64,000 nucleotides of DNA from Halarcobacter sp. (GTDB lineage Bacteria > Campylobacterota > Campylobacteria > Campylobacterales > Arcobacteraceae), in contig OY781089.1 of the NCBI GenBank assembly GCA_963676565.1, forward strand, positions 768,001-832,000, written 5' to 3'. The notes below the pieces were generated by a model. The model had not been told where the DNA came from and made no database searches. It saw nothing but the letters and a program-made list of their open reading frames with translations. Both the position numbers and the translations under genes were made by a program. Shown here piece after piece: positions 7,831 to 45,593 of the stretch (its first letter is position 1; every line of letters starts with the position of its first letter).

Positions 7831-8112
7831 ATGAAAAAATTAATTTTACTATTTACCTTAGCTATTTTTACTATCTCAGCAAATGCTGTTAGTTTTTCAT
7901 GGCTTGAAGGAAAGTTCAAAAATGGTGGAACAATCGATTCAGTGATGAATGAAGTTGATGCCGCTGGATGGGATTTTAGAACTTATACTTGGATTGATGC
8001 TGCAGGTAGAGTTTGTACGGTTGTTTTTACAGAAAACAAAGGTGGAAATCCTGATTGTGATTTTCCTCCAAAAGATTTTGATTATGATGCTTTTTATAAA
8101 AAAATGAAATAA
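7831..8112 (+). CDS. Small secreted hypothetical protein with two cysteines
   Basis: AGGAG RBS, signal peptide ending ANA, 93 aa. Confidence 0.75.
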   Translation: MKKLILLFTLAIFTISANAVSFSWLEGKFKNGGTIDSVMNEVDAAGWDFRTYTWIDAAGRVCTVVFTENKGGNPDCDFPPKDFDYDAFYKKMK

Positions 8113-8128
8113 GAACTTAGGATAGATT

Positions 8129-9088
8129 ATGAATATAGTTGTAATTGGAGCAGGTGGAATTGGTGCTTTTTATGGGATGATTTTAGAAAAGTTAGGTTGT
8201 AATCTAACTTTCGTGGCTAGAAATGAAACCCTTGAGTTTTTAAAAAACAACAAGATGAAAGTAACTTATCAAAATGAAGTTCTTGAAAAGAAGATAGATA
8301 CTTACTCAATTGATGAATTAACCCAAAAATTTAGACCAGAAGATTTTGATGCAGTTTTTATAGCAACAAAGGCAATGAGTACAGAACAAATCTCAAAGAA
8401 ACTTGGTACTTGGACAAAAGATAGTACTAAGATTCCATATTATATCTCTTTACAAAATGGTGTTGAAAATGAAGATATAATGGAAAAATATTACAAAAAA
8501 GAGTATGTAATAGGTGGATTAACTAGACTTATTGTATCCCATACAATCTCTTTAGGTCATGTTCATTGTGAAGGTGAGGTTCAAACTTTAATTGGGGCAT
8601 TAAACCACACAAATGAAAATAAAAAATTTCTTGATGAATTAAAATTGATTCTTGATAAAACAGGAACAACAACTTTTATTTGTGAAGATATTAGACTAGA
8701 ACTTTGGAATAAACTTATAATAAACAATGGTGTTAATGCTATTTGCGCTTTAGTTCAAGAAGAATCTGGACCATTAATAAGAGATGAAAAAACATCAAAA
8801 TTAATATATGGACTTATGAGTGAAGCGGCAAAGGCTTCAAATGCTGTCGGGGTAAACCTTACTCAAGATGATGCAAAAAAGATGTTTGAACTTATGACAA
8901 ATTTCCAATCTGTAAAACCTTCTATGTGGGTTGATACTGAAAATAATAGAGATTTAGAACTTGATGAGATTTGTGGAGTTGTTATTAGAAACTGCGAGAA
9001 ACAAGGCTTTGATGCACCATATACAAGAACTATTTCTACACTTTTAGAGTTTACATATAATAAAAGAAGAGCTAAAATTAAGGCATAA
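8129..9088 (+). CDS. panE: 2-dehydropantoate 2-reductase (ketopantoate reductase family)
   Basis: GAGGIG Rossmann motif, SLQNGV, LWNKLIIN, PSMWVD, ELDEICG. Confidence 0.88.
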   Translation: MNIVVIGAGGIGAFYGMILEKLGCNLTFVARNETLEFLKNNKMKVTYQNEVLEKKIDTYSIDELTQKFRPEDFDAVFIATKAMSTEQISKKLGTWTKDSTKIPYYISLQNGVENEDIMEKYYKKEYVIGGLTRLIVSHTISLGHVHCEGEVQTLIGALNHTNENKKFLDELKLILDKTGTTTFICEDIRLELWNKLIINNGVNAICALVQEESGPLIRDEKTSKLIYGLMSEAAKASNAVGVNLTQDDAKKMFELMTNFQSVKPSMWVDTENNRDLELDEICGVVIRNCEKQGFDAPYTRTISTLLEFTYNKRRAKIKA

Positions 9089-9190
9089 AAAAAGGCTCCT
9101 TTTGGAGCCTTCCCTGATTTTTCGGAGAAATGATATTAATTCGCTTTTTAATATTTAAGATAGGAGTTCGCGGTTCCCTCTCAACCAATA
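9087..9190 (-). ncRNA. Putative small RNA, paralog 1
   Basis: Minus-strand TATAAT at 9196-9201, 5' hairpin TTGAGAGGGA...TCCTATCTTAA, intrinsic terminator AAGGCTCC-AAAA-GGAGCCTT followed by a U-tract; 29-nt core identical to paralog 2. Confidence 0.65.
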
Positions 9191-9258
9191 CTTATATTAT
9201 AATGGATGAGAATTAATCATTTAGTAATGTTTAATTAATAAAAGGTTAACAAACTTAC

Positions 9259-9459
9259 TTATTTGTAATTTTCTTCTAAATCTCTCCATGTTAAATCTTT
9301 TTCAATTTTCATTTGATAAATATGTTTTGGAGCTGGAAATTTAAGTTCAACTGGTAAAGAAGCCCACTCTTGTACACTCATATCATTAAAATGATCCATT
9401 AATTGATGTTCTAATTCATTTGAAATTTCAACCATTTTTACTGATTCAACTCTTTTCAT
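9259..9459 (-). CDS. Small hypothetical protein (66 aa) between the two sRNA units
   Basis: AAGGAG RBS about 7 nt upstream of ATG; not overlapped by other genes. Confidence 0.65.
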   Translation of the reverse strand: MKRVESVKMVEISNELEHQLMDHFNDMSVQEWASLPVELKFPAPKHIYQMKIEKDLTWRDLEENYK

Positions 9460-9580
9460 TTTAAACTCCTTGTTTATTTTTATATGAAATTGTATTAGTT
9501 CAAAATGATATTAAAGTGATGTTTTGAACATATGCTCAAAACTTAAGTAAAAGTTTATTATTTTAAGGGATTTTTTAGGC

Positions 9581-9682
9581 AAAAAAAAAGGTTCCTATTG
9601 GAACCTTCAAATTTTGGAGAGTTTTAAATTCGCACATTAAACTTTATTTGAGATAGGAGTTCGCGGTTCCCTCTCAACCCAT
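9581..9682 (-). ncRNA. Putative small RNA, paralog 2
   Basis: Minus-strand TATAAT at 9689-9694, 5' hairpin TTGAGAGGGA...TCCTATCTCAA, terminator AAGGTTCC-AATA-GGAACCTT followed by a U-tract. Confidence 0.65.
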
Positions 9683-9722
9683 AAGAAAATTATAATAGAT
9701 GAGAATTAATCATTAAGTAATA

Positions 9723-9747
9723 AATTGTTAATCAAAGGTTAACAATT
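9723..9747. promoter_or_regulatory. Inverted repeat upstream of sRNA paralog 2, candidate regulator site
   Basis: AATTGTTAA-N7-TTAACAATT perfect 9-bp arms; right half AAAGGTTAACAA conserved at 9241-9252 in paralog 1. Confidence 0.5.
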
Positions 9748-9815
9748 GAATTTACTAAGAAAATAAGAGTAGATTTTTTATTTACATATATATAATAAAT
9801 AGAAAAAGGAAAATA

Positions 9816-10175
9816 ATGCAAACAAATTTATATGATGAACCACTAGCTGTATGCTCAACTTCTCCAATGACTGGTTTTTTTAGAGATGGTACATGTAGAG
9901 TATCATTTGATGATCAAGGAAGTCATAGTATTTGTGCTGTTATGACTGATGAGTTTTTAGAGTTTTCAAAATCTAGGGGAAATGATTTATCAACACCTAT
10001 GCCGATTTATGGTTTTCAAGGATTAAAAGCAGGGGATAAATGGTGTTTATGTGCTTTAAGATGGAAAGAAGCTTATGAAGCTAATTGTGCACCAAAAATT
10101 GATGCTAAGGCTACATCTAACCAAGCAACTAAATTTATCCCTAAAGAGATTCTTTTAAAGTTTAGTATAAATTAA
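9816..10175 (+). CDS. DUF2237 family protein
   Basis: PMTGFFRDG.C, GNDLSTP, GDKWCLCALRW motifs. Confidence 0.9.
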   Translation: MQTNLYDEPLAVCSTSPMTGFFRDGTCRVSFDDQGSHSICAVMTDEFLEFSKSRGNDLSTPMPIYGFQGLKAGDKWCLCALRWKEAYEANCAPKIDAKATSNQATKFIPKEILLKFSIN

Positions 10176-10177
10176 AC

Positions 10178-10762
10178 CTAGTTTGATTTTTCTAAATACT
10201 TTATAATCTCTTTATTTGCTCTATTTGATAGAAAATATTGGTATAACATTTTATCCACATCAAAAAGTAGCTTACTTGTGTTTTGGATTTGAGTTGCAAC
10301 ATTATTTGAATCAACAGCAAGTTGAAGATACAACTCTTTATCTTCACTAATCCAAGTATTAACTACCTTTGAATAAGTCAGGGATTTTAGTGAAATATGT
10401 TCAGCAAACTTCTTTATATCTTTATCAAACACTTTAGGATTGTCTAGTTTTTCAGTATAGGCTTTATATAATTTACCTGTTTTAGAATAAATTCTTTTTA
10501 GTAGATTATTACTTGCAACAATAAGTGCCTTTTGTTTATAAAAATTTAGGTTTTCCTCTTTTACATCTTTTACAAAACCAATTGATGTGATATTATTTTT
10601 TATTTTAATATCAATTAACCATGCTGGAGAATTTGAAGGTATCTCAATCTCCTCTTTTTCTATCTTTTTTTTGGAGTCAGAAAAAGGATTGATTGAACTT
10701 AGTGAAAAACATCCAGTAAGCAAAAATGTCGAAATTAGAATAAAAAATATATTTTTTTTCAT
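10178..10762 (-). CDS. Lipoprotein, LPP20-like
   Basis: Start trimmed to MKKNIFF; lipobox LTGC; PAW motif after the linker. Confidence 0.65.
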   Translation of the reverse strand: MKKNIFFILISTFLLTGCFSLSSINPFSDSKKKIEKEEIEIPSNSPAWLIDIKIKNNITSIGFVKDVKEENLNFYKQKALIVASNNLLKRIYSKTGKLYKAYTEKLDNPKVFDKDIKKFAEHISLKSLTYSKVVNTWISEDKELYLQLAVDSNNVATQIQNTSKLLFDVDKMLYQYFLSNRANKEIIKYLEKSN

Positions 10763-10776
10763 AAGTTTATAATTAC

Positions 10777-11946
10777 CTAACAATCTGAAAATTTAGAGAT
10801 AATCTCTTTTGATGCTTCAAGGGCTTTTTGGCTTGAGTCTTTATCAAAAGTTAATGCAACTGCCATTCTTCTTCCAACATGAGATTGTGGTTTTCCAAAC
10901 ACTCTTACAAAACTATTTTTTGTAAAAGCATCTTCTTCAATCTCTACAATTGGGTTAAAAGTATCATCTTTTGCTTTATAAGCAGCACTTGCTCCACATC
11001 CATAATCAATATAATCTAAAGGCAATCCTAAAACAGCTCTTACATGAAGGGCAAATTCACTTTGAGATTGAGTAATCATAGTAACCATTCCTGTATCATG
11101 AGGTCTAGGACTTACTTCACTAAAGAATACTTCATCACCTTGAACAAACATTTCAACACCAAAAATACCTCGTCCACCTAAACCATCAGTTACAGTTTTA
11201 GCAATTTTTTGTGCATTTTCTTTGGCTTTTTCACTCATATCCATTGGTTGCCATGAGAAGATATAGTCACCATCTTGTTGAATATGTCCAATTGGTTCAC
11301 AAAATACTGTTTGTTTTTCATTTCTTACCGTAAGCATTGTAATCTCATAATCAAATTTTATAAATGCTTCAACTATTAATTCACTTGCATCACCTCTAGC
11401 TTCTTTAGCAATTTCCCAAGAAGATTCTAAATCAGCCTCACTTTTTGCAACACTTTGACCATGTCCTGATGAACTCATTACAGGTTTAATTACACAAGGA
11501 AATCCCATATTTGAAGCTGCTCTTTGAAGCTCTTCAAAAGTACTTACAAATTCATATGGACCAGTTTTTACCTTTAATTCTTCTGCTGCAAATTGTCTGA
11601 TGTTTTTTCTATTCATTGTTTTATTAACTGCATCAGCATTTGGGATTACATGAAACCCTTCATTCTCTGCATCAAATAAAGCTTGGATATTAATAGCTTC
11701 AACCTCAGGTAAAATATATGTAGGTTTTTCTCTTCTAATTACATCTAATACTTCATTTTTATTTTTCATATTTATAGTATATGCTTTATTTGCAACTAAT
11801 TGAGCGGGTGCATTATTATAACTATCAACAGCAATTGTTTCAATACCTAATCTTTGTGCCTCAATTACAACCTCTTTTCCAAGTTCTCCACTTCCAAGAA
11901 GCATGATTTTTGTTGAATTAGATTTAATAGGTGCAGTAAATTTCAT
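10777..11946 (-). CDS. purT: Formate-dependent phosphoribosylglycinamide formyltransferase
   Basis: [38 protein letters not shown]. Confidence 0.97.
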
Positions 11947-17010: not shown

Positions 17011-17089
17011 TCCCTTGAAGAAATTGTAAGTTTACATTACAATTTAAACAACAAAACATATTAGAGGCTAGGCCTCATTTAACAAACTG

Positions 17090-17187
17090 CAAAAGCCGGC
17101 TAGGGTTCCGATCTATTTTTAGATGTCTGGTCCGAGAGCTAGCGACTCATGATTAGAGTTACACGGAGGGATAAAAGCCCGGGAGGT
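17090..17187 (+). promoter_or_regulatory. Guanidine-I (ykkC-yxkD) riboswitch
   Basis: GCTAGGGTTCCG...CTGGTCCGAGAGCTAGC and ACACGGAGGGATAAAAGCCCGGGAG consensus segments upstream of a guanidine catabolic operon. Confidence 0.95.
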
Positions 17188-45364: not shown

Positions 45365-45452
45365 ATCTCCCCTTTTGTTTTTAAATATATAGGAAGAGAA
45401 GTGTTTTATTATAAAGATATACTAAACTTGAAGTATAAAATACATTTGTAAA

Positions 45453-45545
45453 AACAAATCCCTACGTTAGAATTACCTAAATCAGGTTCAAAGGTCGAAG
45501 TTTTGAACTTCCTCTCAGCCTATAATATAAGCTCCCTATGTATTA
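45453..45545 (-). promoter_or_regulatory. TPP riboswitch
   Basis: Minus strand AGGGAGC...GGCTGAGAGG...GACCTTTGAACCTGATTTAGGTAATTCTAACGTAGGGA matches the THI-box, upstream of tenA-thiY-thiM-thiE. Confidence 0.94.
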
Positions 45546-45593
45546 AAAATAAAATTCTATCGGAATAAACAATTTAAGTCAATTTAATACAGA

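Follow-up and report, generated by a model that had tools for sequence, protein, structure and literature searches.

The window analysed here, a stretch of 64,000 nucleotides (nt) of the Halarcobacter sp. genome (GenBank assembly GCA_963676565.1, contig OY781089.1, positions 768,001 to 832,000 of the forward strand), contains two closely similar units on its minus strand, 493 nt apart, which are very probably conserved small RNA (sRNA) genes with promoters of their own. Taken together, the sequences lead us to prefer, by a modest degree, a joint reading in which the two units (copy A and copy B) are sibling genes of trans-acting, base-pairing sRNAs that would be activated by a response regulator and directed at the mRNA of the porin MOMP.

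Two sibling RNA units and the family they belong to

The two units share an identical core of 29 nt (9651-9679 in copy A and 9158-9186 in copy B, minus strand), as the initial annotation had described. With up to three mismatches allowed, the core matches the window at these two places, none of 100 shuffled sequences contains a match, and the two are the only copies in the whole 3.34-Mb genome. When units of 231 nt are aligned, the mean column identity is 83%, and the conserved block extends from about 55 nt upstream of the end of the −10 box to the terminator, with a diverged middle part. A TATAAT lies 9 nt before each core, and a further 45 nt upstream of each TATAAT are nearly identical between the copies. 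Other features noted initially hold as well: both copies have a second GCGAA and, before the terminator, a UCUCC at the positions given in Table 1, the 5′ hairpin keeps its pairing through a change from G-C to G-U, and in the alignment of the two copies the terminator stems differ by a double compensatory change (GGTTCC/GGAACC versus GGCTCC/GGAGCC). A terminator scan of the region returned two sites against 0.2 expected, copy A as a minus-strand site and the copy-B stem in the plus-strand reading. Read on the minus strand, the copy-B terminator has a 7-T tail, and as its stem is shared with the end of the plus-strand gene, it may act in both directions.

In single-sequence folds, the first GCGAA lies in the loop of a hairpin of 7–10 base pairs (bp), and in most family members the second lies in a 7–10-nt loop of an A/U-rich hairpin. 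Conservation is narrow, being confined to (Y)GCGAA in these two loops, with stems and flanks varying freely. Covariation was evaluated on an alignment of 53 sequences (E ≤ 1e-5, 43 loci), from which L050, L063, L024:1433-1532 (no operator) and L040 (degenerate operator) were left out, being taken as false or decayed. Pairing cells make up 90.5% of this alignment, compared with 77.6% in shuffles; the covariation score is 0.437, compared with 0.208 in shuffles (none of 500 reaches it) and 0.095-0.212 with slid partners; and both sides change in 19 of the 21 modelled pairs (7/7 in hairpin 1, 6/8 in hairpin 2, 6/6 in the terminator), values to be read with caution, as for hairpin 1 and the terminator the alignment had been made to fit the model, and the hairpin-2 columns were picked to maximise pairing. 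Two other structural likenesses were set aside. A GNRA tetraloop (GCGA) closed by a U-A pair was rejected, as the base preceding it varies without a matching change in its partner. Mimicry of a tRNA-Arg anticodon loop, which the C-U-GCG-A-A loop resembles, was dropped since the only tRNA-Arg genes in the genome are UCG and UCU and the U before GCGAA is not conserved.

Conservation of the core in related genomes had been set as a check on the initial annotation. A BLAST-type search of 41 genomes showed two relatives to have the same tandem pair and five further genomes to have diverged copies; as such a search alone recovered no more than 8 of 41 relatives, a covariance model (R1) was needed, and it was built from an alignment of 13 copies sharing a common plan. 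R1 has matches in all 25 genomes of the window's genus (g1), one to four per genome, so that the RNA family is indeed conserved. Among 151 sampled genomes of the family it has matches in 26, five of them outside the genus, and it misses diverged members of other genera, such as one in g30 at 28 bits. The genome of the window has a third strong copy (C1:1388577-1388694, 80 bits) outside the window, and one weak match without a promoter, which we regard as false. In no fewer than 10 of the genus's 25 genomes, two copies lie within about 1 kb of each other; tandem duplication thus recurs. The initial description of a sibling pair, each with its own promoter, operator and terminator, is supported by these comparisons, but the pair does not stand alone: it is one lineage's duplication within a larger family.

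Two subtypes can be distinguished. Type 1, which includes the window copies, measures about 100 nt, with UCUCC ahead of the terminator; type 2 measures about 118 nt and is marked by a conserved UUUGUUUCCUUGUGUGU. A type-2 locus lies between a chemoreceptor gene and a UvrD-like helicase gene in most genomes of the genus. At this locus in the window's genome (L051:2100-2190, C1:1388676-1388766), and likewise in relatives, the type-2 terminator is followed by a conserved extended −10 element (TGCTAATAT) and TCGCC, and then by a tiny upstream open reading frame (ORF; e.g. MKKLSKNIN) that abuts or overlaps the start of the helicase gene. A 1278-nt contig (L047) of the g27 genome G150 carries a type-2 sRNA identical to that of the g1 genome G008 (L035), which could be due to contamination or transfer.

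The initial annotation had recognised no known family, and this is borne out for both subtypes. At gathering thresholds, Rfam 15 has no family at the sRNA units, and its only hits in the window lie elsewhere: a Guanidine-I riboswitch (17089-17187, plus strand, 86.7 bits) and a TPP riboswitch (45442-45548, minus strand, 69.1 bits). An E-value scan of 8950-9900 gave at best 25.1 bits (Atu_C8, gathering score 50), driven by the terminator, and the third copy in L051 reached at best 31.7 bits against 55, the terminator again being behind such sub-threshold hits. For the streptococcal csRNA model (RF02379), whose gathering score is 57, the match amounted to 22.9 bits (E 2.1), so the units are not members of that family, and the window scans gave no match to the OmrA-B, PrrF or Qrr families.

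That the units are a non-transcribed repeat or the remnant of a mobile element is hardly credible. Their copy number of one to four and the frequent tandem duplication are compatible with such an origin, as are four RNA runs of the apparent host with 0 reads on 8000-11000, a result uninformative on expression. Only three good copies exist in the genome, however, one of them syntenic across most of the genus in the chemoreceptor/helicase position; conservation extends to promoter, covarying stems and terminator alike; and no transposase or terminal repeats were seen. Very improbable, too, is the possibility that the units are cis-acting leaders or attenuators, in which case copy A, lying on the same strand about 120 nt upstream of a 66-amino-acid ORF, would govern this ORF by means of its terminator, with copy B as a relic. 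On the strand of copy B, however, no gene follows, since its neighbour is convergent. Members of the RNA family occur in many unrelated contexts and in tandem arrays. The ORF itself, which gave no match in a Pfam search, has only six homologues, 80–97% identical and confined to close relatives (one is named by its source as a hypothetical protein of Arcobacter arenosus), whereas the RNAs extend through the genus and the bacterial family; the units gave no match to a riboswitch or leader family. Between the copy-A terminator and this ORF lies an inverted repeat, GTTTTGAGCATATGTTCAAAAC (about 9516-9537, minus strand), which, slightly altered, is also present in the two relatives with the same tandem pair.

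Table 1 Features of the two units and their neighbours (positions in the window). The ends of the predicted sRNAs are approximate; those of copy A are placed about 7 nt after the −10 box (5′) and at the T-run (3′).
Feature	Position	Strand	Description
Predicted sRNA A	9581..9684	-	~100 nt; covariance model match 97.1 bits
Hairpin 1 of A	9648..9677	-	10-bp stem with one bulge, 9-nt loop ACCGCGAAC; GCGAA 9664-9660; from folding
Hairpin 2 of A	9620..9643	-	A/U stem, second GCGAA (9633-9629) in loop; from folding
Single-stranded CUCUCCAAAAUUU of A	9609..9622	-	Holds anti-Shine-Dalgarno UCUCC (9620-9616)
Intrinsic terminator of A	9581..9608	-	Terminator scan; covarying stem
−10 box TATAAT of A	9689..9694	-	From sequence; nearly invariant in 49 promoters
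Operator of A	9705..9743	-	GTTAAC, ATTAAC, ATTACT, ATTAAT at 11-bp spacing; weight matrix score 38.0
Predicted sRNA B	9087..9191	-	~105 nt; covariance model match 101.1 bits
Hairpin 1 of B	9155..9184	-	GCGAA 9171-9167; closing pair G-U where A has G-C
Hairpin 2 of B	9133..9154	-	AUAUUAA/UUAAUAU stem, loop AAAGCGAA; GCGAA 9144-9140
Single-stranded CAUUUCUCCGAAAAA of B	9118..9132	-	Anti-start-codon CAU and anti-Shine-Dalgarno UCUCC (9128-9124)
Intrinsic terminator of B	9087..9113	-	Stem common to the end of the plus-strand gene
−10 box TATAAT of B	9196..9201	-	From sequence
Operator of B	9212..9250	-	GTTAAC, ATTAAT, ATTACT, ATTAAT at 11-bp spacing; weight matrix score 28.4
66-amino-acid ORF between copies	9259..9459	-	AAGGAG ribosome site; context, outside the RNAs
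PanE/ApbA-like gene	8129-9088	+	Convergent on copy B; stop codon inside copy-B terminator
DUF2237 gene	9816-10175	+	Diverges upstream of copy A

A four-hexamer operator upstream of the sRNA promoters

A TAnAAT stands 10–17 nt before the match in 51 of the 57 model matches, which correspond to 49 distinct promoters. Their consensus upstream of the −10 box is a series of four hexamers in 11-bp phase, nRTTAACTnTTn RTTAACTTTTn RTTAnnnTnTn RTTAAT, the last of which ends 10 nt before TATAAT; the operator that the initial annotation had assigned to each unit has thus found its counterpart throughout the family of RNAs. When the genome of the window is scanned with a 40-nt weight matrix of this operator, the three sRNA promoters score 40.9, 38.0 and 28.4 and the next site 13.8, and a strict operator pattern matches the three sRNA promoters only. 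That next site (C1:3081525-3081570, plus strand, outside the window) lies between two divergent genes and consists of three TGTTAA/TGTTAT hexamers and a weaker TCTTAA in 11-bp phase; it is possibly the site of a related regulator.

The operator is widespread in the bacterial family. A search of the 151 family genomes for the operator plus TATAAT with up to two mismatches found the pattern in 117 genomes belonging to 20 of 22 genera, compared with two matches overall for the reversed pattern used as a control. Genomes with any match have one to eight, and at most six in all but one. We read the sequence behind 29 plus 29 operator sites in eight genera (g19, g20, g23, g27, g29, g30, g34 and g35). 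In seven of these, every site read except a simple-repeat match (L158) is followed by a short RNA-like unit composed of a 5′ hairpin, then a UCUCC, CUCCUCC or UUUCCUUGUGU stretch, and then a terminator. The exception is g29, in which the matches lack such a unit and four of five stand before apparent protein-coding sequence.

Phased direct repeats that replace the −35 element are a hallmark of OmpR/PhoB-type activators. The sRNA promoters have precisely this layout, with direct repeats at 10–11 bp in the −35 place that end about 10 bp before the −10 box, and they are probably driven by an activator of phased repeats. As RTTAAY hexamers are individually palindromic, it is their phasing and position that carry this assignment.

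The initial annotation had likened the organisation of the units to that of PrrF1/PrrF2 or Qrr siblings. The likeness holds for the layout, as PrrF1/PrrF2 and Qrr1-5 are also siblings with a shared core, some of them in tandem, each with its own promoter and terminator. It does not appear to extend to control, the operator having the look of an activator site made of phased direct repeats. Fur represses PrrF, and σ54 with LuxO drives the Qrr RNAs, whereas the units described here have a perfect σ70 −10 box and four phased RTTAAC repeats. No −24/−12 element of the Qrr type (GG-N10-GC) is present in the sRNA promoters, which have a canonical TATAAT instead, and the Fur box of PrrF consists of contiguous 6-bp repeats, unlike four hexamers in 11-bp phase upstream of the −10 box. 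An iron regulon with a Fur box made of two-hexamer ATTAAC-N5-ATTAACA sites was also considered and rejected: the genome has nine such sites, as its base composition predicts by our arithmetic, and their flanks are unlike the sRNA operator. ATTAAC-N5-RTTAACA pairs occur at C1:1599281 (plus strand), 2304045 (minus) and 2295342 (minus) upstream of two genes resembling TonB-dependent receptors and one resembling ExbB, as judged from their N-termini only.

The porin mRNA as a candidate target

The window's genome has a single MOMP porin gene (C1:1058908-1059987; Pfam PF05538, Campylo_MOMP, E 2.7e-20), whose 5′ region reads GUUCGCGCGUCCGG, about 30 nt, and UUUAGGAGAACAA AUG AAA AAA UUC GCA AAA AUG. 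This region is almost invariant in the genus, compared with only 32–72% identity of the MOMP proteins. UUCGCA is found at +10..+15 in 26 of 29 MOMP start regions, and 22 of the 29 also have the upstream GUUCGCG of the leader. GCGAA/TTCGC is rare in the genome (895 occurrences on both strands), and among the 37 predicted genes that have TTCGC between −60 and +45 it occurs twice in two, recR and MOMP. AGGAGAACAAATGA occurs once in the genome.

Each of the three RNAs of this genome has stretches that could pair with the porin mRNA. In copy A, UGCGAAUUU, comprising loop 2 and the 3′ side of its stem, is complementary to porin +7..+15 (9 bp, −10.1 kcal/mol), and CUCUCC-A-AAAUUU of the linker can pair with AAAUUU-A-GGAGA. 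Copy B pairs through GCGAAUU and through CAUUU and UCUCC flanking a 3-nt bulge, and the type-2 copy through GCGAAUUUUU and through AUUUGUU-UCCU with AGGA(G)AACAAAU. Loop 1 (CGCGAAC) is complementary to the porin GUUCGCG at −49..−43. Among 3327 genes ranked by summed duplex energy, MOMP comes 4th with copy A, 25th with copy B and 35th with the third copy; with loop 2 considered by itself, it comes 4th, 6th and 2nd. In cofolding with 300 random genes, only 8, 9 and 5 equal MOMP for the three RNAs. This ranking and cofolding in one genome are suggestive of MOMP as the target, not decisive; full-length duplexes of the sRNAs with all start regions were long, gapped and uninformative.

Comparison among genera adds a different kind of evidence. 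The porin start region, searched for with up to three mismatches, is present in 65 of the 151 family genomes, with variants at codons 4-5. In g1, the loop is UGCGAA or CGCGAA and the target UUCGCA. In six genomes of g27, the loop is UUGCGAUG (UGCGAU) and the target AUCGCA in all six. In g34, the loop is AAUACGAA (UACGAA) in four of five genomes and the target UUCGUA in all five, and a second, tandem copy has UGCGAA, which pairs with this target through one G-U. The best duplex is formed with the target of the sRNA's own genus in 5/5 cases for g1, 6/6 for g27 and 4/7 for g34. The g34 sRNAs also carry UCAUUUGUUCUCCUAAA, which over 17 nt is perfectly complementary to UUUAGGAGAACAAAUGA, the porin start as it reads in g1 and g27, and which has one mismatch and one bulge against the porin start of g34 itself, GGAGAUCAAAUG; their terminator loop repeats CGCGAA, matching UUCGCG of the porin leader. 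Complementarity is thus conserved, with compensatory change, through three loop/target states in three genera, although exceptions exist, and as related genomes are not independent, this co-variation amounts to two evolutionary events, not dozens.

A number of observations weigh against the joint reading. On the side of the target, MOMP is never the top-ranked gene within its own genome, and its anti-Shine-Dalgarno pairing is unremarkable (150th, 332nd and 1014th of 3327). The genome shows no positional enrichment of TTCGC near start codons, and recR likewise carries TTCGC twice close to its start. Codon bias in a highly expressed gene may account for the conservation of TTC and GCA. A −10-like hexamer stands directly before GUUCGCG in the porin leader, so that this site may precede the transcription start or sit at it and hence be absent from the mRNA; many upstream TTCGC sites of the genome directly follow −10 boxes. 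Among the other genera, g19 (six genomes) has retained the porin start region, and there is no loop motif in its sRNAs; the GCGAA loop of the g35 genome G077 faces AUCGCA, with one mismatch; the butzleri-like sRNAs of g27 have no such loop; and the three UGCGAA copies of g34 fit the g1 target better than their own. On the side of control, the hexamers are palindromic as stated above, and the regulator is known only as a prediction from the operator. The RNA runs without reads, uninformative as they are on expression, belong here too.

Several of these points would equally fit regulator-controlled, base-pairing sRNAs of which the porin is not the main target, with UCUCC as a general seed against the Shine-Dalgarno sequences of another regulon, and with GCGAA loops that would serve, for instance, stability or another mRNA. 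MOMP ranks only 4th to 35th, many genes pair better with the anti-Shine-Dalgarno stretch, and conservation of the porin start region extends to cases in which the sRNAs lack the loops. Type 2, the subtype found most widely, has an invariant UUUCCUUGUGUGU whose best complements in the window's genome are other genes; across the genus, the 14-nt complement of the type-2 seed shows no excess over a control, and its exact matches are mostly the sRNA genes themselves. In contrast, the agreement of three loop/target states across genera, the 17-nt complement to the porin start region in a g34 sRNA and the uniqueness of AGGAGAACAAATGA in the genome speak for the porin, and we consider another main target rather unlikely, if by no means negligible.

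The same co-variation bears on the protein titration that the initial annotation had offered beside base pairing. Here, the two GCGAA loops would bind a dimeric RNA-binding protein, as the GGA loops of CsrB/RsmZ do for CsrA. The sharp confinement of conservation to (Y)GCGAA in two loops would suit such a role, and the dedicated regulator-to-sRNA arrangement resembles that of GacA, which drives RsmY/Z. However, domain searches of the genome found no CsrA or ProQ, with working positive controls, and no Hfq, for which positive controls came up in 5 of 14 genomes. The motifs number only two per RNA, and there is no GGA array of the CsrB/RsmZ type. The loop becomes GCGAU or UACGAA in step with the porin codons, as predicted for RNA–RNA pairing, and related sRNAs under the same operator lack any such loop. 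Sequestration of a protein is therefore improbable: titration is left without support, as none of the three proteins was found and the motifs are so few, and base pairing is favoured for both motifs. With all of this considered, the sequences tip the balance slightly towards the porin mRNA as a direct target of the sRNAs.

Some further features of porin leaders and promoters were seen on the way. The porin leader (C1:1058908-1060040, minus strand, L064, outside the window) is nearly invariant across many genera, and just before the ribosome site of the porin there is a small hairpin with a covarying stem (AAAUUUCGAAAUUU versus ACAAAUUUGU). Many promoters of the window's genome have a TATAAT-type −10 box directly followed by TCGC(C/G), for example before recR at C1:2116021; in some of them ATG lies only about 7–9 nt downstream, and G+C-rich discriminators or leaderless mRNAs are possible.

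A model of porin control and its relation to known sRNAs

Combining these observations, we propose the following model. An OmpR/PhoB-type response regulator would bind the four 11-bp-phased RTTAAC sites that stand in the −35 place and turn on a σ70 promoter with a perfect TATAAT. The resulting RNA of about 100 nt, as suggested by its sequence, folds and covariation, would display GCGAA loops on two 5′ hairpins, followed by a single-stranded UCUCC and a terminator. UCUCC and its flanks would pair with the stretch from the Shine-Dalgarno sequence to AUG of the MOMP mRNA, the loop of hairpin 2 with codons 3-5 (AAAUUCGCA), and the loop of hairpin 1 possibly with GUUCGCG where the leader begins. 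These contacts combined would block ribosome binding, and porin synthesis would fall when the regulator is active; the direction, repression by occlusion of the ribosome site, follows from the position of the pairing. As no Hfq, ProQ or CsrA was found, the exposed loops would take over the part of a chaperone.

The known systems closest to these RNAs resemble them in mode of action but are unrelated. In sRNAs of the MicF/MicC/MicA type, a stress-induced, Hfq-dependent RNA occludes the ribosome binding site of an abundant porin mRNA through one contiguous pairing region; the RNAs described here have no sequence kinship with them, and their proposed contacts are made by loops plus a linker. Streptococcal csRNAs carry stretches complementary to the Shine-Dalgarno sequence and to AUG, and the repeat bound by CiaR is TTTAAG-N5-TTTAAG. 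The repeat of the present operator is unlike it, and the likeness is one of architecture alone (four phased hexamers, TATAAT, UCUCC, terminator); the two also differ in phylum and in operator sequence, and the csRNA model stays below its gathering score. The csRNAs form a family-wide set, the CiaR regulon, of two to six short sRNAs per genome with very varied bodies, whose defining feature is a response-regulator promoter with a terminator after it, and which a search for this promoter can bring to light (PMC3091779). The present RNAs are a similar promoter-defined, variable set with a 5′ hairpin, an unpaired UCUCC-type stretch and a terminator. OmrA and OmrB of Enterobacterales are adjacent paralogous sRNAs with a shared conserved 5′ part that are activated by OmpR, pair near translation starts by short complementary stretches and repress outer-membrane proteins (PMC2588501). 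Tandem paralogy, a conserved shared 5′ part, the proposed activation by a response regulator and an outer-membrane protein as a target would be common to both. In contrast to the present RNAs, OmrA/OmrB are Hfq-dependent; there is no sequence or Rfam relationship between the two, and the contacts proposed here involve loops and an anti-Shine-Dalgarno stretch on one porin mRNA, under an operator of four phased hexamers.

Searches of full-text literature brought up no sRNA of this kind in Arcobacter and relatives, and the one genome-wide survey of non-coding RNAs in an Arcobacter, that of Arcobacter sp. L, has, in its main text and supplementary table 1, only unnamed or differently placed motifs, although its other supplements could depict the motif. 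Very little is known about sRNA regulation in these bacteria. The four-site operator provides a highly specific handle on a putative two-component system, and a promoter-first search is a simple way of listing the whole sRNA set of each genome in the family. The proposed pairing offers a testable link from envelope signalling to the major porin, a protein that sets the permeability of the outer membrane and is a main surface antigen in related pathogens, and the variants of loop and target form a natural series for asking how base-pairing sRNAs find their targets without Hfq or ProQ.

More tentatively, and with doubts that presently outweigh our confidence, the findings may be extended to a broad reading. 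Throughout the Arcobacter family, one two-component regulator would have a regulon made up almost wholly of one to eight fast-diversifying sRNAs per genome, which would grip the mRNA of the single major porin at as many as three places (the 5′ end of the leader, the stretch from the Shine-Dalgarno sequence to AUG, and codons 3-5), without a chaperone, by means of loops co-evolving with signal-peptide codons. If so, control would manage without a chaperone in a phylum that lacks Hfq, ProQ and, in this case, CsrA, and it would be the first sRNA control of MOMP/PorA-type porins.

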